Source: a virus (Duplodnaviria; Heunggongvirae; Uroviricota; Caudoviricetes). From it: 38,733 nt of DNA. Of this stretch, positions 15,468-38,733 are shown in pieces (the stretch's first letter is position 1; each line of letters opens with the position of its first letter). The stretch lies in the IMG/VR virus record IMGVR_UViG_2698536454_000017. The stretch is one strand, 5' to 3'. The position numbers were made by a program, and so were the translations under genes. The notes beneath the pieces were generated by a model. It did no database searches. It was not told where the DNA came from and saw only the letters and a program-made list of their open reading frames with translations.

Positions 15468-15472
15468 AACAT

Positions 15473-16905: not shown

Positions 16906-16937
16906 TTTTTTTGCAAATCACAAAGTCCATTTAATGA

Positions 16938-16960: not shown

Positions 16961-16983
16961 TTCCCAACTCTATAGGTAATTTT

Positions 16984-18205: not shown

Positions 18206-18700
18206 ATGAATATGGCGGCACCAAAGGGCAACCGATTTTGGGAGGCCCGCAGTAGTCATGGGCGAAACCCGAAATTCGAATCGCCTGAGGCGCTGTGGGC
18301 TGCTTGTTGTGAATACTTCGAGTGGGCTGATGATAACCCGCTATGGGAGGGTAAGGTATTTTCATATCAGGGAGAAATAATTAAGGCTAATGTCCCTAAG
18401 ATGCGAGCCATGACTATTTCAGGATTGTGCACCTTCCTTGATATCACCAGGCAAACATGGGGAACCTTCCGGTCAATGGAAGGTTTTTCTGACGTCACAT
18501 CACGAGCGGAAGACATCATCTACGACCAGAAATTCTCTGGAGCAGCCGCTGACCTTCTCAACGCTAACATCATCGCCCGTGATTTGGGCCTCAAAGAGCA
18601 GTCGCAAGTTGAAGACGTGACACCTGATAAGGGAGATCGCGATAAGCGACGCTCTCGTATCAAGGAGCTATTCAACCGTGGAACTGGACGCGATTCTTGA
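18206..18700 (+). CDS. terminase small subunit (P22 gp3-like)
   Basis: N-terminus [22 protein letters not shown] matches recalled P22 gp3; upstream of large terminase. Confidence 0.7.
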
Positions 18701-20174: not shown

Positions 20175-22375
20175 TGGCTGATGATAGAAAGATGACTGAC
20201 TGGCATCGCAAGGTGCTGTGCAACTTTGATAATGCCTGGTCAGCAACGCAGGATATGCGAGAGCAGATTATTGAGGCTCAACGTTTCGTCCGGGTGTCCG
20301 GCGCACAGTGGGAAGGCAGCACAAACGCTGGTTACTCATTTGATGAAGGCAGGTTTGAGCATTACCCGCGCTTTGAACTGAATAAGATTGCCCGTGAATG
20401 TGATCGCATCATTGGCGAGTATCGACAGAATCGCATCAGCGTTAAATTCAGGCCGAAGGACGATAAGGCATCGGAAGCGTTAGCCGAAAAGATGAACGGC
20501 AAATTCCGCGCTGACTATCAGGAAACATCCGGTGGTGAAGCGTGTGATAACGCATTTGATGATGCTGTAACGGGCGGATTCGGTTGTTTCCGCATGTGTG
20601 CCGATTACGAAGATGAAATGGATCCGAGTAACGAGCAGCGACGCATCAGCCTTCTTCCTGTTTACGACCCAGCGACATGCGTCTTCTTCGATCAGGACAG
20701 CAAGCAATATGACCGCTCTGATGCTATGTGGGCTGTGGAAATGTTCTCCATGACGCCTAAAGCGTTCGAGGCTGAGTACCCTGACTCCATCGCGGCAAGT
20801 CTTTCTCGTGATGACACTGGTACTCAGTATGACTGGTCAACGCCTGATGCCATCTATGTTGGACGCTACTACGAAGTTCGCATAGAGAAGGTGAAGCTCA
20901 CGGCGTGGCGCAATCCTGTCAGCGGAGAAACGGCAATCTATGATGAAGAGCAAATCAAAGATATTGTCGACGAGCTAACCGATGGCGCATTCGAACTGAT
21001 TGGTGAGCGAACTGTGAAGAAACGCCGCATTTATTGCGGCCTTCTGTCTGGCGCTGAATGGCTGGAAGAACCGAAGCGTATTCCGGGCGAACATATTCCA
21101 CTCATCCCGGTATATGGGCGTCGCTCATTTGTTGATAATCAGGAGCGAATCGAAGGCCACGCAGCAAAAGCGATGGATGCACAGCGTCTTGAGAACCTGA
21201 TGGTTTCCATGATTGCAGATAACGCTACTCAGGCTGGCGGTGATGGCATTCCTGTAGTTGATGTTGACATGATTCCTGGTCCTCTCGCCACTCATTGGGC
21301 GGAGCGCAACAAAAAGCGCCCGGCGTTCCTGCCGATGGTCAGTCTGAAAAACAAAAACGGCGATATTACTGCGCAGGCTCAGGTAAGTAGTTATACACCT
21401 CCGACACAAATGCCTCCTGCTCTTGCTGGGCTATTGCAGTACACCGGAACGGCTATTCAGCAAATTACAGGTGCGTCGCAGATTGAGAACATGCCGAGCA
21501 ACGTCGCCACCGATACCGTTGATAGCATCTTTAACCGGATGGATACGCAGTCCTATATCTACATGGACAACATGGCTAAATCCATGCGTCGCGCTGGCGT
21601 CGTGTGGCTTTCTATGGCACGTGAGGTCTATGGCAGTGATACGCCGATGCGTATCGTTAATGAGGACGGCAGCGATGACGTGGCGCTGATGACTGGTGAA
21701 GTGGTTGACCGTCAGACAGGCCAGGTTATCGCTCTTAATGACCTTTCGCAGGGCAACTATGAAGTGACTGTCGATGTCGGTCAGTCGTTCGCTACTCGCC
21801 GTGATGCAACGGTTAAGTCGTTACTTTCCATGCTGGCACTTATCCCACCAGGAACGCCGAAGCACGACCTTGTATCGTCGATGATTCTCGACAATATGGA
21901 CGGCGAAGGGATGGACGACCTTAAAGAATACAACCGCAATCAGTTGCTTCTGTCTGGCGTTATCAAGCCGAGAACGCCTGAAGAACAGCAGATGGTTGAA
22001 CAGGCGAAACAACAACAGGCCAGTCAGCCAGATCCGGCTATGGTTGCAGCGCAAGGTCAGCTTCTTGCTGGTCAGGCTGAATTGCAGAAAGCGCAGAACG
22101 AACAGGCAGCCATTCAGGTTAAAGCATTCCAGGCACAGACTGATGCTCAGGTTGCAGCGGCAAATGTTGTGAAAATACTCGCATCTGCCGATAGTCAGCA
22201 GAAATCTGATATCCGCGAGGCTCTGAAACTGCTCGGACAGTTCCAGCAACAGCAAGGAGATAATGCCCGTGCTGATGCAGAGCTTGTCCTGAAAAGTCAG
22301 GCACAGGGCCATGCGCAGCGCATGGACATCAGCAGCATCCTGCAAAAATCAACTCAGCAACAACCACAGCAGTAA
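20171..22375 (+). CDS. portal protein (P22 gp1-like with long C-terminal helical barrel)
   Basis: About 735 aa; conserved core (PGEHIPLIPVYG) and Q/A-rich C-terminus like P22 portal; ATG 20171 overlaps terminase stop. Confidence 0.9.
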   Translation: MMADDRKMTDWHRKVLCNFDNAWSATQDMREQIIEAQRFVRVSGAQWEGSTNAGYSFDEGRFEHYPRFELNKIARECDRIIGEYRQNRISVKFRPKDDKASEALAEKMNGKFRADYQETSGGEACDNAFDDAVTGGFGCFRMCADYEDEMDPSNEQRRISLLPVYDPATCVFFDQDSKQYDRSDAMWAVEMFSMTPKAFEAEYPDSIAASLSRDDTGTQYDWSTPDAIYVGRYYEVRIEKVKLTAWRNPVSGETAIYDEEQIKDIVDELTDGAFELIGERTVKKRRIYCGLLSGAEWLEEPKRIPGEHIPLIPVYGRRSFVDNQERIEGHAAKAMDAQRLENLMVSMIADNATQAGGDGIPVVDVDMIPGPLATHWAERNKKRPAFLPMVSLKNKNGDITAQAQVSSYTPPTQMPPALAGLLQYTGTAIQQITGASQIENMPSNVATDTVDSIFNRMDTQSYIYMDNMAKSMRRAGVVWLSMAREVYGSDTPMRIVNEDGSDDVALMTGEVVDRQTGQVIALNDLSQGNYEVTVDVGQSFATRRDATVKSLLSMLALIPPGTPKHDLVSSMILDNMDGEGMDDLKEYNRNQLLLSGVIKPRTPEEQQMVEQAKQQQASQPDPAMVAAQGQLLAGQAELQKAQNEQAAIQVKAFQAQTDAQVAAANVVKILASADSQQKSDIREALKLLGQFQQQQGDNARADAELVLKSQAQGHAQRMDISSILQKSTQQQPQQ

Positions 22376-22465
22376 TTAACCCATAACGTGCAATGGCTGT
22401 CTTTATGAGGCCTGGCACCCTATTGCCTTCCGATGGGCTGAACATCGAGTAAACAGGGGTAACAA

Positions 22466-23359
22466 ATGGACCAGATGGCAGAAAACACACCAGAAGTTGA
22501 AATCGAAACCGACGCGTCAGAGCAGATTCCTGATGATGTCGAACTGGCTGAAGAAGTCGAAACAGAAGATGGCAGTGAGTCCTCCGGCAATGATACAGAG
22601 GAAGCTACTGAAACTGATGACGACGAATCAGAGCAGGAATTCTACTTTGGTGACGAAAAGCTGGATTCGCCAACCAGCGAAGATGGCGCAGAGCATGGAC
22701 TGGTAAAACACCTGCGCAAGACGATTAAAGAGAAAGACCGCGAACTGAAAGAGCTGATGCGTCAGTCTCAGAAACCCGTCGAGCAGCAGCCGGTAATCAC
22801 TCAACCACCGCGAATGCCAAAACTGGATGATGAGGACATCGGTTTCGATGAAGAAATCTACCAGCAACGCATGGCTAAGTGGGCGGAGGACAACGGCAAA
22901 TACCAGCAACAGGAGATGGCTCGCAAGCAGAAGGAGCAGGAGCTTCAGGCTGCCTATCAAGAGCGATTATCCAAATATCAGCAACGTGTTAAGGCTCTCA
23001 AGGTTCCTGGCTATCAGGAAGCTGAACAGGCCGTACTCGAGGAAATCCCCATCGAGACACAAAACGCGATCCTGTTTGAGTCAGAGAAGCCGGAAATCGT
23101 TGTTCTGGCACTCGGTCGCAACGCTGAACTGCGCAAGCAACTGGCAGAAGCTACCAACCCCGTAGCAATTGGTCGTCTGCTGGAACGTATCGAATCGAAG
23201 GCCAGAATCATGCCAAAAGCAAAAACCACGGCAGCCACAACCCCGACAGTTAAGGGGAGCAACGGCGCAGTAATCAATAACCTCGACAAACTGAAAGCCA
23301 GGGCGCTGGAAACTGGTGACTGGACGCCGTATTTCGCCGCTAAAAAGGCAAAAAAATAA
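22466..23359 (+). CDS. scaffolding protein (P22 gp8-like)
   Basis: 297 aa acidic, helical/coiled-coil protein between portal and coat. Confidence 0.75.
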   Translation: MDQMAENTPEVEIETDASEQIPDDVELAEEVETEDGSESSGNDTEEATETDDDESEQEFYFGDEKLDSPTSEDGAEHGLVKHLRKTIKEKDRELKELMRQSQKPVEQQPVITQPPRMPKLDDEDIGFDEEIYQQRMAKWAEDNGKYQQQEMARKQKEQELQAAYQERLSKYQQRVKALKVPGYQEAEQAVLEEIPIETQNAILFESEKPEIVVLALGRNAELRKQLAEATNPVAIGRLLERIESKARIMPKAKTTAATTPTVKGSNGAVINNLDKLKARALETGDWTPYFAAKKAKK

Positions 23360-23377
23360 CCTATCGGAGCATTAAGC

Positions 23378-24631
23378 ATGGCTAACCAATTAGCAAAAGA
23401 CCTTGAAATCATGTTCGAAAACTACGTTGAAGGCTTTGAGGCCGCCTGCGTAGTTTCCCGTAACGCTAAAAAATTCCGTCCCGGTGATACAGCAATGCAG
23501 CGAGCAGGTGATGTTCTGTATCGTCCGCAGCATTACCACATGAACATTGAGGAAGGCCTCGACCTCAGCAGCAAAACGCCAACAGCACTGGTTCAGCGTC
23601 TTGTTCCTTCAGTGTTCAAGGAGCCGAAAAACATTCTGTACACTCTGGATGCGCGTGAAATGCGTGACCCTGAGCATAAAACTGAAGCTGGTCGCGCCGC
23701 AGGTATGCGCCTTGCTGCACAGATTGACTCTGACCTGATTTCCATGGTCACGCAGCGTGCTACTAACGTGATCACAATGGCTGACTCAAGCACTGGTTCA
23801 CAGGGCCGTGATTTGTGGAACTGTGCGGCAGGTATTGATGCCACCATGACGGCGATTGGTGTACCACAGGGTATCAACCGCCGCTCTTTCTGGAACCCCT
23901 TCAACTACAAAGACCTTGCTGGCGAGCTTGGTCACCGAGCCTACGCTCAGGGCGCAACCCTGACAGCATACGAAAAAGCGCAAATCCCTCCGGTTGCTTC
24001 CTTTGATAGCTACAAGACCGATATTTCTGGTCGATTACCGAAAGGAAGCACTGAATCCTTGACAGTATCAGGCCAACCTGAACACAAGGTTGAAGCGAAA
24101 GATTCAAATGGTATGCCAGTTGATAACCGACAGGGGACTATTACGGTATCTGCATCTGGCTTGCAGGTTGGTGATGCGTTCACCATTGCCGGTGTGAATT
24201 CCGTACACCAGATCACAAAAGATACCACCGGTCAACCGCAGGTATTCCGTGTTCTGGCTGTTAGCGGAACTACCGTAACAATTTCTCCAAAGATTCTCCC
24301 TGTTGAAAATACTGATGTTGCGAGTCGTCCATATGCAAACGTCGATGCCAAACCGGCAGAATCAGCAGCAATCACCATTCTCAACAAGAACGCAGCACCT
24401 GCTAACCTGTTCTGGGCTGATGGTTCTGTTGAGCTGATGTACGGCAAACTGGCGTTCCCGACTGGTCAGGGTCCACAGGTAATGACAGCAACCACCGAGC
24501 AGGGCGCTACGCTGATCATGTCTTACGCCTTCGACCACATCAAAGGCGTAACCACTGCTCGTTTCACCACTCTGTACGGTTGCTCTGTACTTGTTCCTGA
24601 ATATACGGGCATCGTTATTGCCGGGCAGTAA
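23378..24631 (+). CDS. major coat protein (P22 gp5-like)
   Basis: 417 aa; position and FWADGSVEL-type segments like P22 coat. Confidence 0.85.
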   Translation: MANQLAKDLEIMFENYVEGFEAACVVSRNAKKFRPGDTAMQRAGDVLYRPQHYHMNIEEGLDLSSKTPTALVQRLVPSVFKEPKNILYTLDAREMRDPEHKTEAGRAAGMRLAAQIDSDLISMVTQRATNVITMADSSTGSQGRDLWNCAAGIDATMTAIGVPQGINRRSFWNPFNYKDLAGELGHRAYAQGATLTAYEKAQIPPVASFDSYKTDISGRLPKGSTESLTVSGQPEHKVEAKDSNGMPVDNRQGTITVSASGLQVGDAFTIAGVNSVHQITKDTTGQPQVFRVLAVSGTTVTISPKILPVENTDVASRPYANVDAKPAESAAITILNKNAAPANLFWADGSVELMYGKLAFPTGQGPQVMTATTEQGATLIMSYAFDHIKGVTTARFTTLYGCSVLVPEYTGIVIAGQ

Positions 24632-24637
24632 TTTTGG

Positions 24638-24659
24638 TGGGGCTTCGGCCCCATTTTTA
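24638..24659 (+). terminator. rho-independent terminator after coat gene
   Basis: TGGGGC-TTCG-GCCCCA then TTTTTAT. Confidence 0.5.
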
Positions 24660-24672
24660 TTGGGAGAAGACA

Positions 24673-24861
24673 ATGGCACGAACAATGCTCTATAAACCTG
24701 GCAACATGATCACCTGTGGTCAGTTTGCTGTCGATTACATCATTGTTGATGACGAAGAAGTTAAATCTCACCTGAAAAAAGGCTGGGTAAAAACTCCTGA
24801 AGAAACCGCAACGAAGCAAAAAGTGGCTAAGGCGGAAGAAGATGGCGAAAACGAAGGGTGA
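24673..24861 (+). CDS. small hypothetical protein (62 aa)
   Basis: ATG 24673 with GGGAG SD 6 nt upstream. Confidence 0.4.
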   Translation: MARTMLYKPGNMITCGQFAVDYIIVDDEEVKSHLKKGWVKTPEETATKQKVAKAEEDGENEG

Positions 24862-25303
24862 TCTCGTTCTTAAGGCTTTACGAAAAGCCGGGCTGTATTC
24901 CAATGCCACGTTGACAGATGCCGACCCTCAGGCAATTGAAGATGCCATTAATGACCTCGAAGACATGATGGCAGCATGGCAGGCGAAAGGTATCGAGCTT
25001 GGATATCAGTTTGCGGATACAGAAAACGGCATCATGCCGTTACCTGACGATGATTCAGGTATCCCTGCATGGGCAAATGATGGCGTCGCTTTGAAGCTCG
25101 CTGTGCAAGTGTGCATGGATAACGTCATTCAGCCGTCAGACGCTCTCCTTACCGCTGCTGACAGTGCATATCAGACAATCTGCATCGCTTTAACCAAAAT
25201 ACCACCACTTGAGCGGCGAAATGACATGCCTCGCGGTAGTGGTAACAAAAGCGCGTTTACGTGGAATCGGTTTTACATCGAGAAAGATGATCCGAGTACG
25301 TGA
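24842..25303 (+). CDS. head-completion / tail accessory protein (P22 gp4-like)
   Basis: Synteny after coat; size 153 aa. Confidence 0.6.
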   Translation: MAKTKGDLVLKALRKAGLYSNATLTDADPQAIEDAINDLEDMMAAWQAKGIELGYQFADTENGIMPLPDDDSGIPAWANDGVALKLAVQVCMDNVIQPSDALLTAADSAYQTICIALTKIPPLERRNDMPRGSGNKSAFTWNRFYIEKDDPST

Positions 25304-25312
25304 GGTGAATAA

Positions 25313-26731
25313 ATGCCGATTCAGCAACTTCCGCTCATGAAAGGTGTCGGCAAAGACTTCCGAAATGCCGACTATATCGACTATCTGCCAGTGAATATGC
25401 TGGCTACACCCAAAGAAATCCTGAACAGCAGCGGATATCTTCGCTCATTCCCGGGCATTGCCAAACGTTCTGATGTGAACGGTATATCGCGCGGCGTCGA
25501 GTACAACATGGCGCAGAGTGCTGTTTATCGCGTGTGTGGTGGCAAGCTGTATAAGGGCGAAAGTGAAGTCGGTGATGTTGCCGGAAGTGGTCGTGTATCA
25601 ATGGCGCATGGTCGGACATCTCAGGCGGTAGGCGTTAATGGTCAACTGGTCGAGTATCGCTATGATGGCACGGTTAAAACCGTCTCAAACTGGCCTGCAG
25701 ACAGCGGATTTACGCAGTATGAGTTAGGTTCAGTCCGCGACATTACACGCTTACGTGGGCGTTATGCGTGGTCAAAAGACGGTACTGATTCATGGTTTAT
25801 CACTGACCTTGAAGACGAATCGCATCCTGACCGTTACAGCGCACAATATCGCGCAGAATCGCAGCCGGACGGCATCATCGGTATCGGGACATGGCGAGAC
25901 TTCATCGTCTGCTTTGGTTCATCGACGATTGAGTATTTTTCCCTGACTGGTGCAACCACCGTTGGTGCTGCTTTGTATGTCGCCCAGCCATCGCTGATGG
26001 TGCAGAAAGGCATTGCCGGAACTTACTGCAAAACGCCGTTTGCTGATTCCTATGCGTTTATCAGCAATCCGGCAACGGGTGCGCCGTCTGTATACATCAT
26101 CGGATCAGGTCAGGTATCACCAATCGCCAGCGCGAGCATTGAGAAAATCCTCCGCTCCTACACTGCTGATGAACTGGCTGATGGTGTGATGGAATCGCTG
26201 CGATTTGATGCTCATGAGTTGCTGATTATCCACCTTCCGCGCCATGTTCTCGTGTACGACGCATCTTCAAGCGCCAATGGTCCGCAATGGTGTGTACTGA
26301 AAACAGGTCTGTATGACGATGTGTACCGCGCTATCGACTTCATTTACGAAGGCAATCAGATAACGTGCGGCGATAAGCTGGAATCTGTTACCGGCAAATT
26401 GCAGTTCGATATCAGCAGCCAGTATGGGCTACAGCAAGAACACCTGTTGTTTACACCACTCTTCAAAGCTGAGAACGCCAGATGTTTTGATCTGGAAGTT
26501 GAATCATCGACTGGTGTCGCTCAGTACGCTGACCGCCTGTTCCTCTCTGCAACCACTGACGGCATCAACTGGGGACGTGAGCAGATGATTGAGCAGAATG
26601 AACCGTTCGTTTACGACAAGCGCGTTTTGTGGAAGCGTGTCGGGCGAATCAGGAAAAATGTCGGCTTCAAATTGCGCGTTATCACGAAGTCACCTGTCAC
26701 TCTGTCTGGCTGCCAGATAAGGATTGAGTAA
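25313..26731 (+). CDS. tail accessory protein (P22 gp10-like), 472 aa
   Basis: Synteny and identical length to recalled P22 gp10. Confidence 0.7.
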
Positions 26732-27579
26732 TGGCGGATTCATCACTGAATGATCCTGTCGCGGTTCAGGCTGCGCGCCTTGATGCTTCAATTTTGCCAC
26801 GCAATATATTCAGCCAGTCTTACCTGCTGTATGTCATAAATCAGGGTGCTGATGTTGGCGCAATTGCCGGGAAGGCAAATCAGGCTGGTCAGGGCGCTTA
26901 TGACGCGCAGGTAAGGAACGATGAGCAGGATGTGATTCTCGCTGACCATGAGCAGCGAATTTCTGCTGCGGAAGCAACGCTTGTTAATCATGAGGAGCGA
27001 ATCAGCCAGGCAGAATCAACTCTTCAGGAACATGAAACACGAATCACTAAGAATGAAAGCGATATTGCGTCGCTTGATACCAGAGTTCAGTCGCTGGAAT
27101 CGCAGGTTTCAGACCATGAAACGCGCATTGATGCTCTGGAGTATGCAACCACACGCAAGAAGTCAGAGGTTGTTTACTCTGGCGTATCTGTAACCATCCC
27201 GACAGCGCCGACCAACCTTGTTAGCCTGCTGAAAACGCTCACGCCGTCATCCGGCACGTTGGCACCATTCTTCGACACCGTTAACAACAAGATGGTTGTG
27301 TTCAACGAGAACAAAACCTTGTTCTTCAAGCTGTCGATCGTCGGGACGTGGCCCAGCGGAACCGCCAACAGGTCAATGCAACTAACATTTTCCGGCTCTG
27401 TTCCTGACACACTGGTAAGCAGTCGCAACTCGGCGACAACGACCGATAACATCCTGTTAGCTACGTTCTTCAGCGTGGATAAAGACGGATTTCTTGCCAC
27501 AAATGGCAGTACGTTAACCATTCAGTCGAATGGTGCGGCGTTTACTGCCACAACCATCAAGATAATCGCGGAGCAGTGA
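26731..27579 (+). CDS. tail needle (P22 gp26-like) with extended C-terminal knob
   Basis: N-terminus [68 protein letters not shown] matches recalled gp26; heptad-repeat coiled coil; 282 aa versus 233 in P22. Confidence 0.8.
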
Positions 27580-28034
27580 TGATTCAGTTCAAACCAACGC
27601 GAAACATCGACCTGATAGAAGCCGTGGGAAATCACCCCGACATTATCGCCGGGAGCAACAACGGTGATGGATACGACTACAAGCCTGAATGCCGTTACTT
27701 CGAGGTGAACGTGCACGGGCAGTTCGGCGGCATTGTTTACTATCAGGAGATTCAGCCTTTGACCTTTGATTGCCACGCCATGTACCTGCCAGAGGTTCGT
27801 GGATTCAGCAAGGAAATCGGGCTGGCGTTCTGGCGATACATTCTGACTAACACCACCGTTCAGTGCGTCACATCGTTCGCTGCGCGCAAATTCCGCCACG
27901 GTCAGATGTACTGCGCAATGATTGGCCTTAAGCGTGTAGGAACCATCAAGAAATACTTCAAAGGCGTGGATGACGTGACGTTTTACAGCGCAACACGCGA
28001 AGAACTAATCGACTTCCTGAATCACGGGAGATAG
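27579..28034 (+). CDS. P22 gp14-like assembly/ejection-associated protein
   Basis: Synteny (needle, 14, 7, 20, 16); ATG 27579 overlapping needle stop. Confidence 0.5.
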   Translation: MIQFKPTRNIDLIEAVGNHPDIIAGSNNGDGYDYKPECRYFEVNVHGQFGGIVYYQEIQPLTFDCHAMYLPEVRGFSKEIGLAFWRYILTNTTVQCVTSFAARKFRHGQMYCAMIGLKRVGTIKKYFKGVDDVTFYSATREELIDFLNHGR

Positions 28035-28036
28035 CC

Positions 28037-28729
28037 ATGTTATATGCATTTAAGCTGGGCAGAAAACTGCGCGGCGAGGAACCTTGGTGCCCTGAAAAAG
28101 GCGGGAAAGGTGGCTCCGATAAAAGCGCAAAGTATGCAGCAGAAGCTCAGAAGTATGCCGCAGACCTGCAAAATCAGCAGTTCAACACCATCATGAACAA
28201 CCTGAAGCTGTTTACTCCTCTGGCTGATAAGTATGTCGGCAGCCTCGAGAACTTATCGTCTCTGGAAGGGCAAGGTCAGGCACTTAACCAGTATTACAAC
28301 TCTCAGCAGTACAAAGATCTTGCTGGTCAGGCTCGCTATCAGAGTCTGGCGGCAGCGGAAGCAACAGGTGGATTGGGTTCCACTGCAACCGGTAATCAGT
28401 TAGCAACAATCGCACCAACGCTTGGTCAGCAATGGCTATCTGGTCAGATGAACAACTACCAGAATCTGGCAAATATTGGTCTTGGCGCACTGCAAGGTCA
28501 GGCAAACGCCGGGCAGACATATGCCAACAACATGAGTCAGATTTCGCAGCAAAGTGCGGCTCTTGCAGCGGCAAATGCCAACAGACCATCAGCAATGCAA
28601 TCTGCTATTGGCGGAGGTGCGTCTGGTGCTATTGCTGGGGCTGGACTTGCGAAATTAATTGGTTCATCAACTCCGTGGGGTGCTGGTATCGGTGCTGGTA
28701 TCGGTCTGCTTGGTTCACTGCTTTATTAA
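28037..28729 (+). CDS. ejection protein (P22 gp7-like)
   Basis: Synteny; 230 aa; Q/A/G-rich with C-terminal glycine-zipper membrane segment. Confidence 0.6.
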   Translation: MLYAFKLGRKLRGEEPWCPEKGGKGGSDKSAKYAAEAQKYAADLQNQQFNTIMNNLKLFTPLADKYVGSLENLSSLEGQGQALNQYYNSQQYKDLAGQARYQSLAAAEATGGLGSTATGNQLATIAPTLGQQWLSGQMNNYQNLANIGLGALQGQANAGQTYANNMSQISQQSAALAAANANRPSAMQSAIGGGASGAIAGAGLAKLIGSSTPWGAGIGAGIGLLGSLLY

Positions 28730-28739
28730 GGGGTAATCA

Positions 28740-30155
28740 ATGGCTACGTGGCAACAGGGTATTAATTCTGGTGGTTTTCTGGCTGGCATCGGTACGCAAA
28801 ATGAGAATGCGCCAAAGGCAAGCGACATTAACGCAACGCTTGGTCTGATCCGCGAAAACAATGAACTGGCTCGCTCAGGTGCAAATAACGTTGGTCTGAC
28901 CGCGTTACGTGGTCTGGCTGGAGTTGCTGATATTTACAATCAGGAACAGCAACAGAAAGCGATTAGTGCGTTCAATAAGGTTCACGCTGATGCATGGGCT
29001 TCTGGTGATCCATCGGGACTATTTAAGTTTGCCAAGGAAAATCCAGCGTTTGTTGCGCAGGCACAACAGGCGTTTTCCGGTCTTAATGAGCAGCAACGCA
29101 ACGATATGGGCGATTTAGCCATGAGGGCTAACGTCGCTCTTTCTCAGGGACCGGAAGCCTACAGTAAATTCATTACTGACAACAAGGACAGGTTAAATCG
29201 CGTTGGTGCTAATGCTGACTGGATGATTCAGACAGGTATCCAGAATCCAGAGCAGCTATCACACATGCTGACTACTATGTCTCTCGGTGCTCTTGGACCA
29301 GAAAAGGCGTTTGCTGTTCAGGATAAGATGGCTGGTCGTGAAATTGACCGAGGCAGGCTGGCAGAGACAATCCGCAGCAATCAGGCTGGCGAGGCACTTC
29401 AGGCGAGAGGGCAAAACCTTTCCTATCAGTCAGCAATGACTGGGCACAATATCGCAGCACAACGCTTGGCTCTGGATCAGCAAGAGTTCGGGTTTAAGAT
29501 GCAGCAAGCGCAGGAAAAGGCTCAGCAGTTGATTAGCGAAGCACCTAAGCTGTCAGTAAATATGGAAAAAGGCATCGAGACGGCTGTAAACAATGCCACA
29601 GCATCATCAAACTCAGCCAATTCCATGAGTGCGCTTGCTCAACAGTTCAGAGCAGAAAAACCAACGACAGGTTTGTTCGGTAACGCACAGAACATGTTCG
29701 CAAAACTTACCGGAAGCGATACGACATTGCGTGATTTGCGCATTCGCCAAAATGCCCTTGTTAACAGTCAGGTTCTTAAATTCCTACCTCCCGGCCCAGC
29801 AACGGATAAAGACGTTGAGATCGTTCGACAGGGTGCGCCAACTGACATGGATAACCCTGAGACGGTCGCAAGATGGCTTGATGCAATGGCAAACCTTGAG
29901 CGACGAAACGCGCAGTTTAATGAGTTTAAAGCCGAGTGGATGAGCGCGAATGGCAACCCTGGACAATCGCGTAATGGCGGTCAGATATTGGGGTTGGATG
30001 TTAAAAAAGGTGAATCATTGGGGAGTGCCGTTAAGCGGTATATGTCAATGAATACTGACGCAGCGCCAGCACAAGATTCGACACCTTCAGGAGAACCACG
30101 GAATCAGGTTGGATCATATACATCAAAATCAGGCATTCAATTTACGGTGGAATGA
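28740..30155 (+). CDS. ejection protein (P22 gp20-like), 471 aa
   Basis: Synteny and identical length to recalled P22 gp20. Confidence 0.65.
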
Positions 30156-32158
30156 TGAAAGTAACTGCAAACGGTAAGACATTTACCTTTCCTGATGGTA
30201 CGAGCACCGAAGATATTGGCACCGCCATTGATGAGTATTTTGCTGGTCAGTCAGCACCAACACAACAAGGTGTTCAGCAATCGCCAGCAGACAACTCACT
30301 TGCATCAGGATATGCACAGCTTGCCACTCAGCAGAAGGAAGGACTAGATCGCTCTGCTGAGCAAGGGGCTGTTTTAGGTGCTGCAATGCGCGATGCCGTT
30401 ACCGGTGAAAGCCGAATGACACCAGAAATGGAGAGACTGCAAAATGTTGGGTCTGCTCCAGAGCTTAATAGCTTAAGCACTGATGCGCTGCGTGCTGGAT
30501 TGGGGCAGCTATTTGGTTCCGACGCTTCACAGGAGAAAATACTGCAAAGTATTGGCGGGAAAATCCGGAAGGATGAGAAGGGAAATTCCATAGTCACCCT
30601 TCCTTCAGGGGAATATGCACTTAACAAGCCTGGTTTGTCACCGCAGGATATAACGTCATTCTTGGCAAATGCTCTTGCATTCACTCCAGCAGGTAGAGCT
30701 GCGTCTGTTGTAGGTGCAACACTAAAATCAGGCGCTACTGATTTAGCTTTACAGGGGGCCACTAAGATCGCTGGCGGTGAGAATGTTAATCCAGTTCAAA
30801 CTGCAATTTCTGCTGGTCTTGGTGGGGTACTGAAGGGTGTAGAAAACACCGCAAGCGCAGTGTCTCGTTCTGCTATGGGTAATATTGCTCCTGAAAAACA
30901 AGCTCAGATTGACTTTGCCAAGCAGAACAACTTGCCACTGATGACAACAGATCTTGTGGAACCGGGAACAAATATTGGTAAGCAAGCACGAGCTATGGCT
31001 GAGCGAATCCCAATAGCCGGAACAGGTGGGATAAGAAATGCACAGCAAAAGGCCAGGGAAGATTTAGTTAGAACATTTAGCGATAATGTTGGTGGAATAT
31101 CTGACGCACAACTTTACCAATCAGCTACTCGTGGTCAGCAGCAATTTATTCAGGCTGCTGGCAAGCGGTACGACAGGATCATCAGTTTGATGGGGGATAC
31201 TCCTGTTGACATCACTGGAACAGTGAAAGCAATTGATGAGCAGATTTCCAAGTTAACTCGCCCAGGAGTATCGCAAGACCGCTCAGCTGTTTCTGTCCTT
31301 CAACAGTTTAGAAATGACATCACCAGCGGTCCAAATAACCTGCAATTAGCTAGAGAAAACCGTACAAACTTACGTAAGCGATTTATGGCAGCACCTGACG
31401 AGGTCGATAGAGATACGCTGGAGAAAGCTGCGCAGTCTGTTTATAACGCATACACAACAGACATGAAAAAAGCGGTTGGCGCAAAACTAGGTGCGAAGGA
31501 AGCGCAAAACATGTCGCGTGTTGATCGTTCTTGGGCAAAGTTCAACGACATGATGAGCAATACACGTGTCCAAAAAGCTATTCAGAGTGGTAAAACAACG
31601 CCAGAAGATGTCACTAAACTAGTATTTAGCCAAAGCCCAGCGGAAAGGGCGCAACTTTATCGATTGCTTGATGATAGTGGGCGTCAAAATGCTAGAGCAG
31701 CACTTGTTCAGCGTGCAATGGATAAGGCGACAAGCGATTCAGGAAAGCTTAGCGTTGAGAAGTTTATTAATGAAATGAAAAGGAATCGGAAGCAGGCTGA
31801 GACGTTCTTCAGAGGAGAGCATGGGAAACAGCTTGATGGGATAATGAAATATCTTGATTCCACTAGACAGGCAGCTACTGCTGCCGCAAGCCCACTAACA
31901 GGGCAAATGGTAGCTGGTCCAGCAGCGCTGATAACAGCTCTTGCGTCTGTTACAAATCCAATGTTTGCAAAAGTTGCGGCAGTTGGAGCTGGTATCGGTA
32001 TGGCTGGCAGGGGCTATGAGTCACGCGCGATGAGGAACGCATTACTAAAGTTAGCAAACACACCAAAAGGAAGTACTGCTTATGATAGAGCGATCAGACG
32101 GGTATCTGAAACTCTTACACCTCTAATTCAGGCTTCAAGTGAGAAAGCCCAGCAGTAA
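30152..32158 (+). CDS. ejection protein (P22 gp16-like), 668 aa
   Basis: Synteny; large A/G/Q-rich protein preceding tailspike region. Confidence 0.65.
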
Positions 32159-32166
32159 AAAGTTGG

Positions 32167-32487
32167 TTAGCGGTTGATGGTTGCTTTTTTCGGGTCATAC
32201 CATCTCGGCCATTCTTTCAGGAATGGGAATGAGTCGGGTGCGTGGTTCTTTTTGTACGATTTAAGCAGCCTTAACCGCTCAATCGCACACTCATAAACCT
32301 CTTGTTGCCCTGTAGTCATCTCGGTCCATGAAAGGTGATCCATTGATAAGACAACGTTTTCAGCTTCTTTTATGAGGGCGTTTTTATTTCTCACCGCAGC
32401 AGCATGGCTGACAGAGCAATCCTGCCATATTCTTAAAAGCCAAATAGCTAAGCAGATGAAAAAAATGGTAGATAGCGATATATACAC
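32167..32487 (-). CDS. small membrane-anchored protein (about 106 aa; start uncertain)
   Basis: GTG 32487..32485 with AAGGAGG SD 5 nt upstream; N-terminal TM helix YISLSTIFFICLAIWLL; longer ORF-track version would overlap the divergent gene. Confidence 0.4.
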   Translation of the reverse strand: MYISLSTIFFICLAIWLLRIWQDCSVSHAAAVRNKNALIKEAENVVLSMDHLSWTEMTTGQQEVYECAIERLRLLKSYKKNHAPDSFPFLKEWPRWYDPKKATINR

Positions 32488-32517
32488 ACCAACCTCCTTA
32501 GTTTTGAGCAGGATACC

Positions 32518-32883
32518 ATGAAAAAAGTTAACATTGGAAACGTACCAAAGATGCTCGTTCCGCTCTTTGAGAGCGGTACAATTGTGTTTTGTAGAGACTT
32601 TCCAGAATGGCAACGCCTGCATCAAAAACTTGGCGTTGACGTGCATGACTCTGACGCCAACGGAGCGTCTCATACAATGAGTAGCGAGAATGGTGTTTTG
32701 CATGTGATAGGCGTGTTCAATGGCAAACTATCTACTATTGCCCATGAGTGCGCTCACATGGCATTCGATATCTGCTCAAGGGTAGGTGTTGATGTTGAAC
32801 CAGGAAGAGCCAACGAGACTTACTGCTACTTAATGAGCAGGCTTGTTGAGTTCTGCGAGCGACATATCAAAAAGCCGGAGTGA
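32518..32883 (+). CDS. small HExxH-motif protein (putative Zn-metallopeptidase-like, 121 aa)
   Basis: STIAHECAHMAFD motif with downstream Glu (EPGRANETY); ATG 32518. Confidence 0.5.
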   Translation: MKKVNIGNVPKMLVPLFESGTIVFCRDFPEWQRLHQKLGVDVHDSDANGASHTMSSENGVLHVIGVFNGKLSTIAHECAHMAFDICSRVGVDVEPGRANETYCYLMSRLVEFCERHIKKPE

Positions 32884-32896
32884 ACCGGCTTGATTA

Positions 32897-33076
32897 TTAC
32901 TTTTTGCTGTCTGGAGTTCGCTTATCCAATACCCAGCCATGACCTGGCTTTGTTGTTGGTGGAAGCCTTTCGTTGTCCTTGACGGTGGCAAAATTGTCTT
33001 TCTTACCGCCGCGCGGGCCAACTTCTTGGTATATTCCGCCGTTTTTTCCTGTGTTTTCACCTGGTTTTTTCGCCAT
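32897..33076 (-). CDS. small Lys/Gly-rich hydrophilic protein (59 aa)
   Basis: ATG 33076..33074 with GAGGT SD 5 nt upstream; MAKKPGENTGKNGGIYQEVGPRGGKKDNFATVKDNERL... Confidence 0.4.
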   Translation of the reverse strand: MAKKPGENTGKNGGIYQEVGPRGGKKDNFATVKDNERLPPTTKPGHGWVLDKRTPDSKK

Positions 33077-33237
33077 GATATACCTCAACACACACCCGTT
33101 ATTGGGCGATTAAATATTGATCTCATTTTATAAGTAGTCAATATGGTCTTGGTAATGTCAAAAATTAACCAATCGTCATCTGGGGTATCCATAAAAACCC
33201 TTCAGTACATAACTACTGACAGATAACCAACGCAACG

Positions 33238-33261
33238 ACCCAGGTTCGGCTGGGTTTTTTT
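33238..33261 (+). terminator. rho-independent terminator upstream of tailspike
   Basis: ACCCAG-GTTCGG-CTGGGT followed by T7. Confidence 0.5.
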
Positions 33262-33319
33262 ATGCCCAAAATTCACCGTAGCCATGCTGCGGCCATTCCT
33301 TGTATCTGGAGCAAATCAA

Positions 33320-35563
33320 ATGACAGATTCAATAAATGCCAATGTTGTAGTGAGTATGCCTTCGCAACTCTTCACTATGGCTCGTTCTTTTAAAGCTGTA
33401 GCCAATGGCAAAATTTATATCGGTAAAATTGACACTGACCCGGTAAATCCTGAAAACCAGATTCAGGTTTATGTGGAGAACGAAGACGGTTCTCACGTTC
33501 CTGTTTCGCAACCAATCATCATTAACGCTGCTGGTTATCCGGTATATAACGGACAGATTGCCAAATTCGTAACTGAGCAAGGCCATTCTATGGCTGTTTA
33601 TGATGCGTATGGTGCACAGCAGTTCAAATTCCCAAATGTGCTGAAGTATGACCCTGACCAACTCAGGCAAGATCTTGCATCTCAAGGAGGTGTTAATCTG
33701 GTAAACGGAGCTATCTCACAGGAAGATCTTGTTTTGCAGTCGATCACAAAAATTCCAAGTTATGATAATTCTAACGTAGTCCAGGCATGGCGCGATAGTG
33801 TTGCGACCTACGGGTATGTTTACTTCTCTAATCATTCAAAAAATCAGATGGTGTACACCGTACCGTCTACAGCTGCTAACGCTTCTTTCCTTGCGAACAG
33901 TAAAGTAATCATTGATAAAAATGTCACCCTGAGATTCGACAGTGATCTGTACTCACTGTTTAAATCGTTGCAGTACGAGGGGGAGGGTACGTTTGAATTT
34001 ACGCACCTGAACTTTAAAGCAACCGGTGGAGAAGTGGATTACCTGGCTAAGCAGGCCATCCTCAACCGAAACCCTATTCGCATGAAGCGAGTGGAATGGT
34101 CAGATTGTAAAGTTTATTCCATAAATGGTGACACGTTCTTCTATGAAGGTGAAGTCACCATATCCTCAGATAGCGCAGCTATCTTCCCCTTAACTACTAA
34201 CCGTACAACAGGCCTGTTCGCACCAATAGATATTGGAGAGCATATTTCTGCACATATTCGCATGGAATCTCAGGCCGCCTCAGAAGTTGGGATTGTTCTG
34301 CGATGCTCTGGTGGTTGGATGATGTTCTATGGGGCACCAGGTGCTACACAGTGGTCTTATAGACAGAAACCAATTGGTGGTCCAGTAGCAGAAGGAACCC
34401 CATTCCCGCTGCCAGGAGGTTTACTGTCGTACGCCCCGGGCAAAGCAACCGTTGGCGTATCACTGCAAGGTAAAAACTGGGCGCAGATAACGATGAATGG
34501 CGTTGGGATACGTTTGCCCTTTGATACTGGTGATGTAGGGGATGTATACGAAGTTGGGTTTGTTGCACTGACCCCGGCATCTGGAGGTGCTGCGCGTGTA
34601 ACTGGATTATGCAGCTACACCTCTGATAATGGCGTGCACGGTAAGCCTCCACTTAATATCCTTATCCACGGGGATAGTACAGCTGAGGATTTCATTTCCG
34701 CGTTCAGCTCGTACATTCCGCAATTAATGGATGGAGCGAACGGCCACCGTTCATATAGCATTGTAAACAAGGCAGTTGCCGGACAGACAATGAGGCAACA
34801 GTTAGATCTCCTGAAGGCTCAGGGGCCGGGTGATGCTTACATCGTTATTATGGTTGCCGGAACTAACGAAGGGCAGGCAAACCAAAACGGCGATTATATG
34901 GCGTCACTGATAGATGAGTTTGTCTTATATTGCAATGGCCTTGGTCGTATCCCTGTTTGGGTTGAGCCGTGGATGTGGTATAGCCAGTCATTTATTGGCG
35001 GTGCTGGTCAACCATCAGCAAATTACGATGGTGTTGCGGAGTTGCGCGAGGCTGGTAAACGCCAGATGATGAAATATGGCAATAACGTCATTTGTGTAAC
35101 AACAACTCACCAGCTCCCGGCCCCATATCCAGAGTATTTCAACACGCAATACGACCCACTTCTGCGTGATGACATTCACCAAAGCCAGTTAGGGTATCGT
35201 CTGTATGCGGAAATTATCTGCTCTGCCATTATCGACTGGTGGTCGCGTGTTGATTACACGCCAAGAGCAGCTGTTCAATGGTGGGCTGGAACAAACGTAA
35301 CAGTACAGGCACCGTCAAGTTTAACTGCCAATTCAATTAATATTAAACTGGCAGCCACTTCATTTGCGAATGGCAATACTGTTCTAACGCTTCCGAGGTG
35401 GTGCAGACCAAAAGTAACCAAAAATGTCCCTGTACCGTTCACTGCTGATGGCGTTTCATTTGGCATGGCAATGGCCACCATTAATGCTTCAACAGGACAA
35501 ATATCGATTGAAGGGTCCACAACTACATCTCCAACGTTCTACATAGATGCGACATGGGCGTGA
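33320..35563 (+). CDS. tailspike: P22-type head-binding N-terminal domain fused to an SGNH/GDSL esterase receptor domain
   Basis: N-terminus [60 protein letters not shown] matches recalled P22 gp9 residues 1-120; SGNH blocks [19 protein letters not shown]. Confidence 0.85.
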
Positions 35564-35665
35564 TCGTTAAAAATATGCCATAGATATAATCAATTACAGC
35601 CAACCATATATGGTTAAAATGTGTATGATAAACTCTCCAACTAAGGAGGTTATTATGCACAATAG

Positions 35666-36082
35666 ATGGTGGTCACTATGGCAACCACGCTGACAACGGA
35701 GTCACTTAATCAGGGGCTTAGCCTTGGTGCGCTGGCTTCCGTTGTTGCCGGGGTTCCTCCTGAAGTAGCGTTAGGTGCTCTTGCTGGCGCGGTAATTTTT
35801 GTTACCTCGGCAGTTGAGTACCCAATAAAACGGCGGCTGCTCCTGGCTATTCTCAGCTTCCTCTGCGGAGTTCTCTTCTACAAAGCGACAGCATCAATTC
35901 TCATCGGTGTTGCCAGCCTTATACCAACGATCACGCAGGATTCTTTTGAGAAGGGCATTGTGTTTTCTGCCGGTGCTTTCGTATCAGCAATCGTTGCTGT
36001 CCGCATTGGTATCTGGCTGTATCACAGCTCTGAAAATCCGCGCGACCTTATCCCGGGGAGAAAAGACGATGGCCAGTCCTGA
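35666..36082 (+). CDS. holin-like membrane protein (138 aa, 3-4 TM segments)
   Basis: Hydrophobic helices; first gene of a holin/endolysin/spanin cluster; start 35666 or 35678. Confidence 0.5.
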   Translation: MVVTMATTLTTESLNQGLSLGALASVVAGVPPEVALGALAGAVIFVTSAVEYPIKRRLLLAILSFLCGVLFYKATASILIGVASLIPTITQDSFEKGIVFSAGAFVSAIVAVRIGIWLYHSSENPRDLIPGRKDDGQS

Positions 36083-36362
36083 GCTACTTCTCATCCTGAA
36101 CGCCGCAATCTGCGGCGGAATTGCAATCAGAGTCCTGCTGTTCCGTCGTGGAGGGTCACGCCATCGCTGGTGGGGCGGGTGGCTGGCTTACCTTCTTATT
36201 GTCTCTGCTGCCAGCGTGCCTATTCGTACTTTTTACGGGCATTACATATGCGCAGATTGGTCAGAAATCATCATCAAAGCCGTGTTCCTGGCAGCCCTTA
36301 TCAAGACAAAAGGGAACGTGGTGCAAATTTTCAAGATAACGAGGTCTCAGCATGGACATTAA
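36069..36362 (+). CDS. second small membrane protein (97 aa; holin/antiholin-like)
   Basis: ATG 36069 with GGGGAG SD; 2-3 TM segments; overlaps neighbours by a few codons. Confidence 0.45.
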
Positions 36363-36981
36363 ACAATTCCAGCGAGCTGCAGGTATTAGCGAGGCGCTGG
36401 CCGCTCGCTGGTTCTCGCATATAACTTCTGCGATGAAAGAGTTTGGTATCAGCAAAGCAGAAGATCAGGCAATGTTTATTGCTCAAGTCGGGCATGAGTC
36501 TGGTGGCTTCACCAGGTTGCAGGAGAATTTCAACTACAGCGTCACAGGACTGGCTAACTTTGTTCGGGCAGGACGTCTCACTCAGGGACAGGCCAACGCA
36601 CTGGGTCGCCGTGCTGGTGAACCACCATTGCCACTCGAGCGCCAGCGCGCGATCGCAAATCTGGTGTACAGCAAACGCATGGGTAACAATGCCCCAGGCG
36701 ATGGCTGGAATTACCGTGGGCGCGGACTTATCCAGATTACCGGTTTGAATAACTATCGTGACTGCGGAAACGGCCTGAAAGTGGACCTGCTGGAGAATCC
36801 TGAACTGCTGGCGCAGGACGAATATGCGGCCCGCAGCGCGGCTTGGTTCTTCGCCACAAAAGGCTGCATGAAGTACACCGGCGACATGGTGCGCGTCACG
36901 CAGATCATCAATGGCGGGCAGAACGGCATCGACGACCGGCGTGCGCGTTACATCACTGCCAGTAAGGTGCTGGCGGTATGA
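36352..36981 (+). CDS. GH19 (chitinase class I-like) endolysin
   Basis: [12 protein letters not shown] and [13 protein letters not shown] motifs characteristic of GH19 phage endolysins. Confidence 0.8.
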
Positions 36982-37466
36982 TCTGGGCATTCGTGAAAGC
37001 GTACTGGAAACCGTTGCTTATCGTGGTGATGCTTGCTGCTTTGGTTGCTGGATGCCGTATCGCCTGGGTGAATCATGGTGAAACTCAGTACGCCGCAGGA
37101 TACGCGCAGGCACAGTCAGACCAGAAACAGGCTGATGATAAGGCCAGGTCACAACGTGATCAGGAGAAGACACAAATTGAACATGAAGCACAATCTCGTA
37201 TCGATGTGGCGCGCGTTGATGCTGAGCATGCTAATACCGCTGCTGACGGCCTGCGCGCCGAGCTTGACAAAACCAAGCGACTCGCCGAACACTATACCGG
37301 ATCTTTCCCCGCTGGCACGCCAGCCAGCAAGGTCATCGGTGTGCTCGCCGACATGCTTGAAGAAAGCAACCGAGCTTACATCGCAGCAGCAGAAGAGGCT
37401 GAGCGATATCGGTCTGCAGGACTCACATGCGAGCGACAGTATGACTCCCTGAAAACGGGGTACTGA
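36978..37466 (+). CDS. i-spanin (Rz-like)
   Basis: N-terminal TM ([13 protein letters not shown]) then coiled coil; ATGA overlap with endolysin. Confidence 0.6.
37183..37452 (+). CDS. o-spanin (Rz1-like) embedded in Rz-like gene
   Basis: Signal peptide with lipobox LLTAC followed by Pro-rich segment, in alternate frame wholly inside 36978-37466; start codon uncertain. Confidence 0.5.
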   Translation: MKHNLVSMWRALMLSMLIPLLTACAPSLTKPSDSPNTIPDLSPLARQPARSSVCSPTCLKKATELTSQQQKRLSDIGLQDSHASDSMTP

Positions 37467-37594
37467 TTTCCGGTGACGGTATATAAAACGGTACGGTGAA
37501 AATCAGGATTCAGAAAGTTGTTATCAGTCAATTGGTTATGCATGTCGTAAATAATTGAGTGGGAATGATTTTAATCCCTGCACTATGAATGAAC

Positions 37595-37624
37595 AAAACC
37601 CTCTGTTACTACAGAGGGTTTTTT
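37595..37624. terminator. bidirectional rho-independent terminator between convergent genes
   Basis: AAAA-CCCTCTGT-TACT-ACAGAGGG-TTTTTT. Confidence 0.6.
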
Positions 37625-37662
37625 ATCTTCAAGAATCATAGGCTTGAAGTTACTAACATCGA

Positions 37663-38202
37663 TTAATTAAACCAGCTGTCCGATTTGTTCTCTTCTGCTT
37701 TGCCCACGCTTTTCATCAGATCGCGACCGCCTTCAGTCATATTTCTGTTGGCGTCAGCTTCAGATTGCACCACATCGGTTTGCGCAGCTTTGTGCTTCAG
37801 TTCCTGATCGATAAATTCGTTTTCTCGCTTAACGCGGGCTTCTTCTTTTGCCAGCGCCAGTTTTTGTTTCTGAATCTCTAAGCTGCGTAGCTCATCTTCA
37901 TAACTTTGATCGCGTTTTTTGTCCGCAGAGGCTTCGGCGTCCAGTTTATCCTGACGAGCTTTCTTATTTGCCGCTGCCGTTGCCGCTCTTTTGTTAGCGG
38001 CGGCCTGGGCATTTGCGCGACGTTGCTTCTCTTGCTGGATTTCCCTGTTGCGCTCCGCGACCCATTCGTCATGCTGCCTTTGCTCTTCATTTTTACCTTG
38101 CTGTTCAGCTTCTGCTACAGCAGAGAGTTGATCCTGCAATGATGAGGCGATAGCCGGATAGCTTAAGGAGGCCAAGATGGCGCAAAGAAAAACTTTCTTC
38201 AT
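37663..38202 (-). CDS. secreted coiled-coil protein (179 aa, signal peptide)
   Basis: Signal peptide MKKVFLCAILASLSYPAIA; K/E/Q/A-rich helical body; AGGAGG SD. Confidence 0.5.
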   Translation of the reverse strand: MKKVFLCAILASLSYPAIASSLQDQLSAVAEAEQQGKNEEQRQHDEWVAERNREIQQEKQRRANAQAAANKRAATAAANKKARQDKLDAEASADKKRDQSYEDELRSLEIQKQKLALAKEEARVKRENEFIDQELKHKAAQTDVVQSEADANRNMTEGGRDLMKSVGKAEENKSDSWFN

Positions 38203-38217
38203 GACTCCTCCTGATTA

Positions 38218-38733
38218 TTAGCTCTTTTCAGGACATTTAGTATTTGGCTGAATACGCGTTTCGTTATACGTTGTGGTAATAACAACGGCTAAACCTGTCG
38301 TAAACTGGCACTCTTTACCCACCTGGGTAGAGGTATACACTTTGGTGCCTTCCTTATATGTTAAAGAAACACCTTCCACTAAGGTTTTATCATTCACCAT
38401 AGAACCCACTGCCGCGCCTACAGCTCCGCCGCCAACTGCCCCTGCCGTCGTTCCGGAATTGCTGCCAGAACCGACGTTGTGGCCGATAACACCGCCAGCG
38501 ACTGCGCCAATAAGCGCGCCGAAGGCTTGTGCGTTCCGTTTATTTTGGGAGTTGTCTACGGCAACTTTTGCGGGAAGAATGGAAATAATATTAACGGTTT
38601 TAGTTTCTTGTTTGGTATTCAGTTGATCGGTTTGATAAACATCGGCGGCATGATCGTCAGCATTTGACTGGCATCCTGCCAGAGTGAATGACGCTAACAT
38701 TGCCACAGGCAGAAGACATTTTTTAAATTTCAT
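38218..38733 (-). CDS. lipoprotein with glycine-zipper segment (171 aa); start codon is the last 3 nt of the window
   Basis: Lipobox FTLAGC; GALIGAVAGGVIGHNVGSG glycine-zipper-like stretch. Confidence 0.55.
   Translation of the reverse strand: MKFKKCLLPVAMLASFTLAGCQSNADDHAADVYQTDQLNTKQETKTVNIISILPAKVAVDNSQNKRNAQAFGALIGAVAGGVIGHNVGSGSNSGTTAGAVGGGAVGAAVGSMVNDKTLVEGVSLTYKEGTKVYTSTQVGKECQFTTGLAVVITTTYNETRIQPNTKCPEKS

Follow-up and report, generated by a model that had tools for sequence, protein, structure and literature searches.

A P22-like tailspike with a predicted SGNH esterase module associated with the Escherichia coli O88 O-antigen

P22 gp9, Sf6 gp14 and HK620 gp9 are beta-helix glycosidases (endorhamnosidase, endo-N-acetylglucosaminidase), and the tailspike of CUS-3 is an endosialidase. 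Tailspikes that act as esterases instead of depolymerases are known but have been sampled thinly. Phage G7C gp63.1 (PDB 4QNL), a deacetylase of the O-antigen of E. coli 4s, is essential for infection and leaves the backbone intact, and may, on indirect evidence, act processively (PMC10743462). PP99 gp55, an SGNH-type podovirus tailspike from a Pectobacterium phage, removes acetyl groups from the O-acetylated 6-deoxy-L-talose side chain of the host O-polysaccharide (PMC6989608). Two SGNH receptor-binding proteins from Klebsiella prophages are confirmed esterases, and such proteins are common in Klebsiella prophages (PMC13123978). The tailspike of the Salmonella phage epsilon15 is described in a preprint as a barrel-shaped protein with a protruding esterase appendage (bioRxiv 10.64898/2026.07.31.742079). 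Here, we analyze a tailspike gene in a stretch of viral DNA of 38,733 nucleotides (nt; IMG/VR record IMGVR_UViG_2698536454_000017), the whole of which we refer to as the window. We propose, with a probability of roughly three in four, that its product is an O88-directed SGNH O-acetyl esterase tailspike of a P22-like (HK620/Sf6-like) temperate E. coli podovirus.

The window tailspike has in common with the tailspikes of P22, Sf6, HK620 and CUS-3 its head-binding domain (~70–90% identity) and its position in the late operon. It differs from them in the receptor module, which has been exchanged at the YDPDQ hinge and which contains an SGNH domain and no beta-helix. It belongs to the P22 gp9 family through its adaptor domain only, since the beta-helix that defines the family is absent. 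The observations behind our proposal, all of them made in silico, are the identities of the domains, the conservation of the catalytic residues, the absence of a beta-helix, the P22-like synteny, and the confinement to O88 genomes of the receptor module that follows the head-binding domain (amino acids (aa) 1–115) and that we call the cassette. Esterase tailspikes being already known, the window tailspike is a further example and introduces no new principle. In the literature that we searched, neither a P22-like SGNH tailspike nor a tailspike specific for O88 is described.

The predicted SGNH domain

The original prediction placed SGNH blocks in the part of the protein where P22 gp9 has its glycosidase, and these motifs are real. 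HGDSTAED is found at aa 450–457 (nt 34667–34690), GTNEG at aa 514–518 (nt 34859–34873) and DDIHQS at aa 617–622 (nt 35168–35185); their order is that of SGNH blocks I, III and V, and block II, NKAVAGQT with Gly488, lies in between. A search with aa 121–747 yielded 89 clusters, and 34 sequences, with identity down to 24%, were aligned. Invariant throughout this alignment are G451-D452-S453 (block I), G488 (block II), G514-T515-N516 (block III), and D617 and H620 (block V), together with Asp199, Pro692 and Pro697. The motifs of the tailspike have not arisen by chance.

Matches to the Pfam family Lipase_GDSL_2 (PF13472) point the same way. Among the 34 homologues, 22 match this family at E ≤ 1e-3, the best at 6e-14. 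For the tailspike itself the match spans profile positions 3–178 of 178 (aa 451–628), with a score that lies below the gathering cut-off. Hence, the SGNH assignment rests on conservation across the family, on the homologues that do pass, and on the predicted fold.

Structure prediction bore out the domain: aa 445–642 fold in the model as a three-layer alpha/beta/alpha SGNH domain, the top structural matches of which are hydrolases. The matches include 1yzf, an SGNH lipase/acylhydrolase (score 19.6; 178 residues at 2.8 Å), 7bxd (19.3), the CE3 acetyl esterase 2vpt (18.2), the sialate O-acetylesterase 7pzg (17.6), the peptidoglycan O-acetylesterase Ape1 (~16), the fibre of phage SFP21A (9lna; 14.6) and G7C gp63.1 (4qnl; 14.5). 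Blocks I–III, including GDS, G488 and GTN, are in register with those of the solved esterase 9otv. Foldseek alignments to the CE2 esterases 2WAA and 7TOG (E 1e-9 to 1e-8) extend over ~440 columns and are longer than the SGNH domain alone, a length that in the predicted structure fits a shared two-domain arrangement of beta-sandwich and SGNH domain. The CE2 esterases are, in contrast to the tailspike, soluble bacterial enzymes for plant polysaccharides; identity is 10–13%, and the orientation of the domains is not conserved (TM ~0.35).

How does the domain compare with those of the described esterase tailspikes? Sequence searches of the PDB with the single protein, with the family profile and with the SGNH segment alone returned only matches to the N-terminal adaptor and weak matches of TesA type (E ~0.02–0.3). 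Membership in the sequence family of G7C gp63.1 is ruled out, as 4QNL was not detected in either PDB sequence search. We propose for the window tailspike the same working principle as for gp63.1, without kinship in sequence; gp63.1 has an N4-like branched fibre adaptor in place of the P22 head-binding domain, and differs in its accessory domains and in its target O-antigen. PP99 gp55 likewise acts as the window tailspike is proposed to act, by deacetylating an O-polysaccharide, and its blocks I–III align with those of the tailspike family (hhalign E 1e-5) over the SGNH core only. Unlike in the window tailspike, the SGNH domain of PP99 gp55 is N-proximal, starting at ~aa 68 of a 550-aa protein. 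The Klebsiella prophage proteins (PMC13123978) resemble the window tailspike in combining a temperate phage with an SGNH domain, but have a different host and a different glycan, capsules of various K-types. With the epsilon15 tailspike, as the preprint describes it, the window tailspike has in common an esterase domain, reported in the one and predicted in the other, on the spike of a podovirus.

The P22-type adaptor and the parts of the cassette

The N-terminus proved to be what the original prediction had called it, a head-binding domain of P22 gp9 type. PF09008 is matched at aa 4–114 (E 2.4e-63; 211.8 bits, cut-off 24), and the solved head-binding domains in the PDB are matched with E values between 1e-64 and 1e-43, among them Sf6 gp14 (7sg7; E 1.7e-64) and P22 gp9 (~1e-47). 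Identity is 89.8% to HK620 (aa 1–128), 88.5% to Sf6 (aa 1–122) and ~70% to P22 gp9. Gene calls and Pfam matches place homologues of the P22 coat protein, gp4, gp10, the gp26 needle, gp7, gp20 and gp16 on the 5ʹ side, so that the tailspike gene stands where gp9 does, closing a P22-like late operon behind the genes for the ejection proteins gp7, gp20 and gp16. The late region (window positions 14000–33660) is ~95–97% identical to phages E212, CUS-3, Kapi1 and EC.P3, and the early region of the prophage is 97.8% identical to HK620. A lambdoid prophage of P22-like (HK620/Sf6/CUS-3-like) type occupies positions 1–33660 of the window. With every known P22-like phage, E212 and CUS-3 included, DNA similarity ends at about 33660–33680, that is, in codons 113–121, and this is the classical YDPDQ hinge after the head-binding domain.

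The hinge is followed by a conserved motif, LRxxLAxxxGVxLVxGA, that is kept in family members with other N-terminal adaptors. Its position directly after the P22 YDPDQ hinge marks the point at which adaptors are swapped. Beyond the head-binding domain, the predicted structure has no beta-helix and consists of an alpha/beta region, a beta-sandwich, the SGNH domain and a second beta-sandwich. In the model, the parts of the whole protein follow one another as head-binding domain, hinge, alpha/beta region, lectin- or carbohydrate-binding-module (CBM)-like sandwich, SGNH esterase domain and C-terminal sandwich (Table 1). A beta-helix hidden in aa 120–440 was considered and is ruled out by the predicted structure, in which the central domain is a ConA-like/galectin/CBM66-like sandwich. 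For the alpha/beta region (aa 141–250), a fold match was sought and none was obtained, despite a confident model.

Distribution of the cassette and the link to O88

We searched 5426 complete E. coli genomes with the cassette by sensitive blastn. It occurs in 13 of them, in alleles that range from 99% down to 71% nt identity. The O88 wzx and wzy genes occur in 30 of the 5426, and all 13 carriers are among these 30 (hypergeometric P = 2e-31, or 4e-12 if only five carriers are counted as independent). By itself, the head-binding domain is present in 1140 genomes, as against a cassette that is confined to O88 genomes. In nine of the 13 carriers the cassette is part of a P22-type spike, for example at the bio/ybhB site, and in three it is part of an 800-aa tail protein of an epsilon15/phiV10-like prophage at yfgI. 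In carrier XJ55, the allele is 71% identical at the nt level and is annotated as an SGNH/GDSL hydrolase; it is probably cluster P0033, with a TSP1/gp66-type N-terminus. The carriers span three N-terminal adaptors and prophage types and two or more integration sites, and their hosts are horse, pig, chicken, cattle and human. Thus, they are not one clone with one prophage. Judged by this distribution, the cassette appears to be an O88-specific receptor module.

In the wider set of homologues the cassette is found on at least five virion adaptors. Those seen are PF09008 (P22), PF18668 (TSP1/gp66 N-terminus), PF03906 (T7 fibre N-terminus), PF12571 (P2-type tail collar), Calx-beta and an epsilon15-like N-terminus. 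Among deposited phages, tblastn with the full protein and with the cassette against 50,697 phage records found no close copy. The relatives of the cassette in these records are those of Aeromonas phiA047 (28.7%) and of Enterobacter SABI and SonariX (23.5%), all annotated as hypothetical, and a remnant in ESCO9. Epsilon15/phiV10-like prophages at yfgI carry the same SGNH cassette as the window, but tblastn with the cassette found nothing in the epsilon15 records.

What might the substrate be? Carrier strain A30 has an O88 O-antigen cluster, with wzx and wzy genes that the annotation assigns to the O88 family. Also in the cluster are rmlBAC without rmlD, another reductase of the short-chain dehydrogenase/reductase (SDR) type, manC/manB, and two hexapeptide O-acetyltransferases. 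The occurrence of the cassette in O88 genomes only and the two O-acetyltransferases in the O88 cluster point to an O-acetylated O88 polysaccharide as, by analogy, the most likely substrate. The presence of rmlBAC without rmlD, together with another reductase, suggests a 6-deoxyhexose pathway that would fit 6-deoxytalose, the sugar on which PP99 gp55 acts.

For the mode of action, from the trimeric state of the spike and its esterase activity to the O88 O-acetyl substrate and processive entry, we infer the following scheme by analogy with the known deacetylating tailspikes. The head-binding domain would anchor the spike to the tail hub, presumably as a trimer like P22 gp9, and the usual beta-helix glycosidase is replaced by the cassette, with its lectin/CBM-like sandwich, predicted SGNH serine esterase and C-terminal sandwich. 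The virion-anchored spike would bind O88 chains, probably via the lectin-like sandwich and the SGNH cleft. Ser453, the putative nucleophile, would be activated by His620 (base) and Asp617 (acid) and attack the acetyl ester, while Gly488 and Asn516 would stabilize the oxyanion as the oxyanion hole. One or more O-acetyl esters would be hydrolyzed, the backbone would remain uncut, and the deacetylated product would be let go. Cycles of binding, deacetylation and release could then carry the virion through the O-antigen layer until its tail needle reaches the outer membrane, a route that has been proposed for G7C gp63.1.

The predicted ConA-like sandwich (aa 254–434) allows for a different division of labor. 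It could be a GH16/PL7-like domain that cleaves the glycan, in which case the spike would have a dual function as a depolymerase and the SGNH domain would only assist by deacetylating ahead of cleavage. We regard this as unlikely. It is less probable again that the SGNH domain is silent, so that the cassette is an O88-binding adhesin only, or that it modifies the receptor by acyl transfer. Retention of catalysis is favored by the full Ser/Gly/Asn/Asp-His set, which is invariant in homologues down to 24% identity. Hydrolases head the list of structural matches, and an extracellular virion protein would presumably have no obvious acetyl donor. Least probable of all is a receptor other than the O88 O-antigen, be it another acetylated surface glycan (capsule, colanic acid, enterobacterial common antigen) or a trait that co-occurs with O88 lineages: the link is correlative, comes from lysogens, and is joined by close homologues (91–92%) in Enterobacter, but it holds for 13 of 13 carriers against an O88 frequency of 30 in 5426, across prophage types, integration sites, hosts and alleles as distant as 71% nt identity, and the cassette is found in O88 genomes only, as against 1140 genomes with the head-binding domain.

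Several points weigh against an O88-directed esterase spike and are reflected in the probability that we assign to it. The tailspike's own Lipase_GDSL_2 score is 19.6 bits, compared with a gathering threshold of 32.9 bits, and there is no NCBIfam model for it. In PDB sequence searches, the characterized esterase tailspikes are not found with the tailspike or with the family profile, and the homology to PP99 gp55 is only marginal, at an hhalign probability of 82%. The structural model is a monomer. The O88 association is drawn from lysogens, some of them clonal (SRY149, SRY157 and SRY206 are all but identical), and O-acetylation of O88 is deduced from gene content only.

An O88-directed esterase spike amounts to a sharp receptor prediction, the E. 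coli O88 O-antigen. It would offer a convenient system in which to study how a podovirus crosses the O-antigen layer when deacetylation is its only means, on the chassis of the well-understood P22 virion. The tailspike could also yield an O88-specific binding or typing reagent.

Several observations concern individual relatives of the cassette. On Enterobacter chromosomes or prophages (clusters P0014 and P0017), it is 91–92% identical and sits on other adaptors, which hints at an O88-like O-antigen in some Enterobacter strains. In SRY149, a convergent gene for a fused AT3 and SGNH acyltransferase (PF01757 + PF13472, OafA/Oac-like; 3043–4508 (−) of locus L010) lies directly 3ʹ of the P22-type SGNH tailspike gene, in the usual slot for lysogenic conversion; the gene is absent from the window. 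The SRY149 prophage would thereby combine a spike that is predicted to deacetylate with a predicted acetyltransferase for the O-antigen. In E. coli NADC1036, an epsilon15-like phage with the cassette is found both in the chromosome and as a separate record (NZ_CP076267.1, of 38,709 bp, and NZ_CP076264.1), and this double occurrence suggests an active phage, excised or replicating. In A30 (locus L001, 2551–5578), an IS66 insertion and a 195-nt pseudogene fragment annotated as "phage tailspike protein" lie 5ʹ of the intact SGNH tailspike gene; the fragment is possibly a relic of a former tailspike start. A copy of the final 59 aa of the cassette, 95% identical, is present in the tail-fibre locus of the phi92-like phage vB_EcoM_ESCO9 (3501–3677 of locus L008), where it partly overlaps a tiny open reading frame (ORF) annotated as "endo-N-acetylneuraminidase". 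To judge by the sequence, this stretch is apparently the leftover of a replaced receptor module.

Gene organization and the 3ʹ joint

The tailspike ORF is uninterrupted, and a GGAG ribosome-binding site lies 8 nt 5ʹ of its ATG. A second in-frame ATG at 33284 would add 12 residues; homologues begin at MTD and do not use it. PHROG 17606 covers the protein over its full length and has the label "unknown function". Copies 96–98% identical to the window tailspike have been named "phage tailspike protein" by PGAP, and other relatives either that or "SGNH/GDSL hydrolase family protein". The exact protein is on record in one contig only.

Table 1. Positions in the window of the tailspike gene, its predicted parts and the adjoining lysis genes
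Feature	Position (nt)	Strand	Basis or remark
Tailspike gene	33320–35563	+	747 aa + stop; ORF, ribosome-binding site, PHROG 17606
P22/Sf6-type head-binding (virion attachment) domain, aa 1–115	33320–33664	+	PF09008, Sf6/P22 structures
Hinge/neck, aa 116–140, adaptor swap point	33665–33739	+	Low-confidence short helices; conserved motif
Alpha/beta region, aa 141–250	33740–34069	+	Predicted local distance difference test (pLDDT) ~85–90; Asp199 invariant
Concanavalin-A-like/galectin-like beta-sandwich, aa 254–434, putative carbohydrate-binding module	34079–34621	+	Predicted structure
SGNH/GDSL esterase domain (predicted), aa 445–642	34652–35245	+	Conservation and predicted fold
Proposed catalytic codon, Ser453	34676–34678		
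Proposed catalytic codon, Gly488	34781–34783		
Proposed catalytic codon, Asn516	34865–34867		
Proposed catalytic codon, Asp617	35168–35170		
Proposed catalytic codon, His620	35177–35179		
C-terminal beta-sandwich, aa 660–745	35297–35554	+	pLDDT ~95; Pro692, Pro697 invariant
Second lysis cassette, epsilon15/phiV10 type	35564–37466	+	Context 3ʹ of tailspike; followed by host yfgI, yfgH
Holin	35678–36082	+	Pfam, gene calls
Holin	36069–36362	+	Pfam, gene calls
GH19 endolysin	36352–36981	+	Pfam, gene calls
DUF2514 spanin-like	36978–37466	+	Pfam, gene calls

The 3ʹ two-thirds of the tailspike gene and the DNA that follows them are of epsilon15/phiV10 type. From about position 33905 (codon 196), past the stop codon and up to position 37045, the window shares 96.7% identity with the epsilon15-like prophage at the yfgI site of E. 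coli 602687, and over positions 37459–38733 its identity with the yfgI/yfgH region next to that prophage is 99.4%. The second lysis cassette is 82% identical at the nt level to phiV10 and 78% to epsilon15. It is superfluous, for the P22-like part already contains antiterminator Q and lysozyme genes of its own at 14813–16471, where holin-sized and spanin-sized ORFs flank the lysozyme gene. In all other P22-type copies, similarity stops at the stop codon; they end in ATW, as against ATWA in the window and in epsilon15-type alleles, and their 3ʹ neighbors are ybhB/bioA, an integrase gene or an AT3-SGNH acyltransferase gene.

The joint could have formed by recombination of a P22-like genome with a resident epsilon15-like prophage through the shared cassette of 1.5–1.7 kb. 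An alternative explanation is that a short-read assembler joined two copies of a repeat, which would make the contig a chimera, and we put the odds between the two at roughly even. The arrangement of the window is reproduced in no complete genome, the best single place covering 67%, and there is no step in GC composition at the boundary of the cassette. A map of mismatches against four alleles shows private single-nucleotide polymorphisms in the window allele and patchy similarity, so that the divergence at the stop codon is the only breakpoint that can be placed. This pattern is compatible with both explanations; the end of the contig falls within the prophage. For the identity of the tailspike the question is immaterial, since the same gene is present in bona fide P22-like prophages elsewhere. 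If true, the joint with the epsilon15-like prophage documents the movement of a receptor module between unrelated podoviruses. The larger reading, in which the cassette is an O88-specific, non-depolymerizing module that moves between unrelated adaptors and the window has caught such a transfer, as a real single-crossover joint in the tailspike gene at yfgI with two lysis cassettes in one element, is tentative, and we consider it somewhat doubtful.

Three features of the P22-like part of the window can be added. The window starts at position 3 of CYCS01000008.1 (a draft contig of 183.7 kb; assembly GCA_001283365.1), inside the lambdoid early-left region at about HK620 coordinate 3151, and the integrase/attL side is therefore outside the view. 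The equivalent of the immI region between gp16 and the tailspike gene (32167–33133) is without the arc and ant genes that are present in related prophages; the small ORFs that it contains have no recorded Pfam families, and a 121-aa ORF at 32518–32883, the only one scanned directly, gave no match. An ORF of 169 aa that resembles HNH/NUMOD4 homing endonucleases (13495–14004, +) lies between an Ant/Rha-like gene (12735–13457) and the nin-region genes for RusA and Q.

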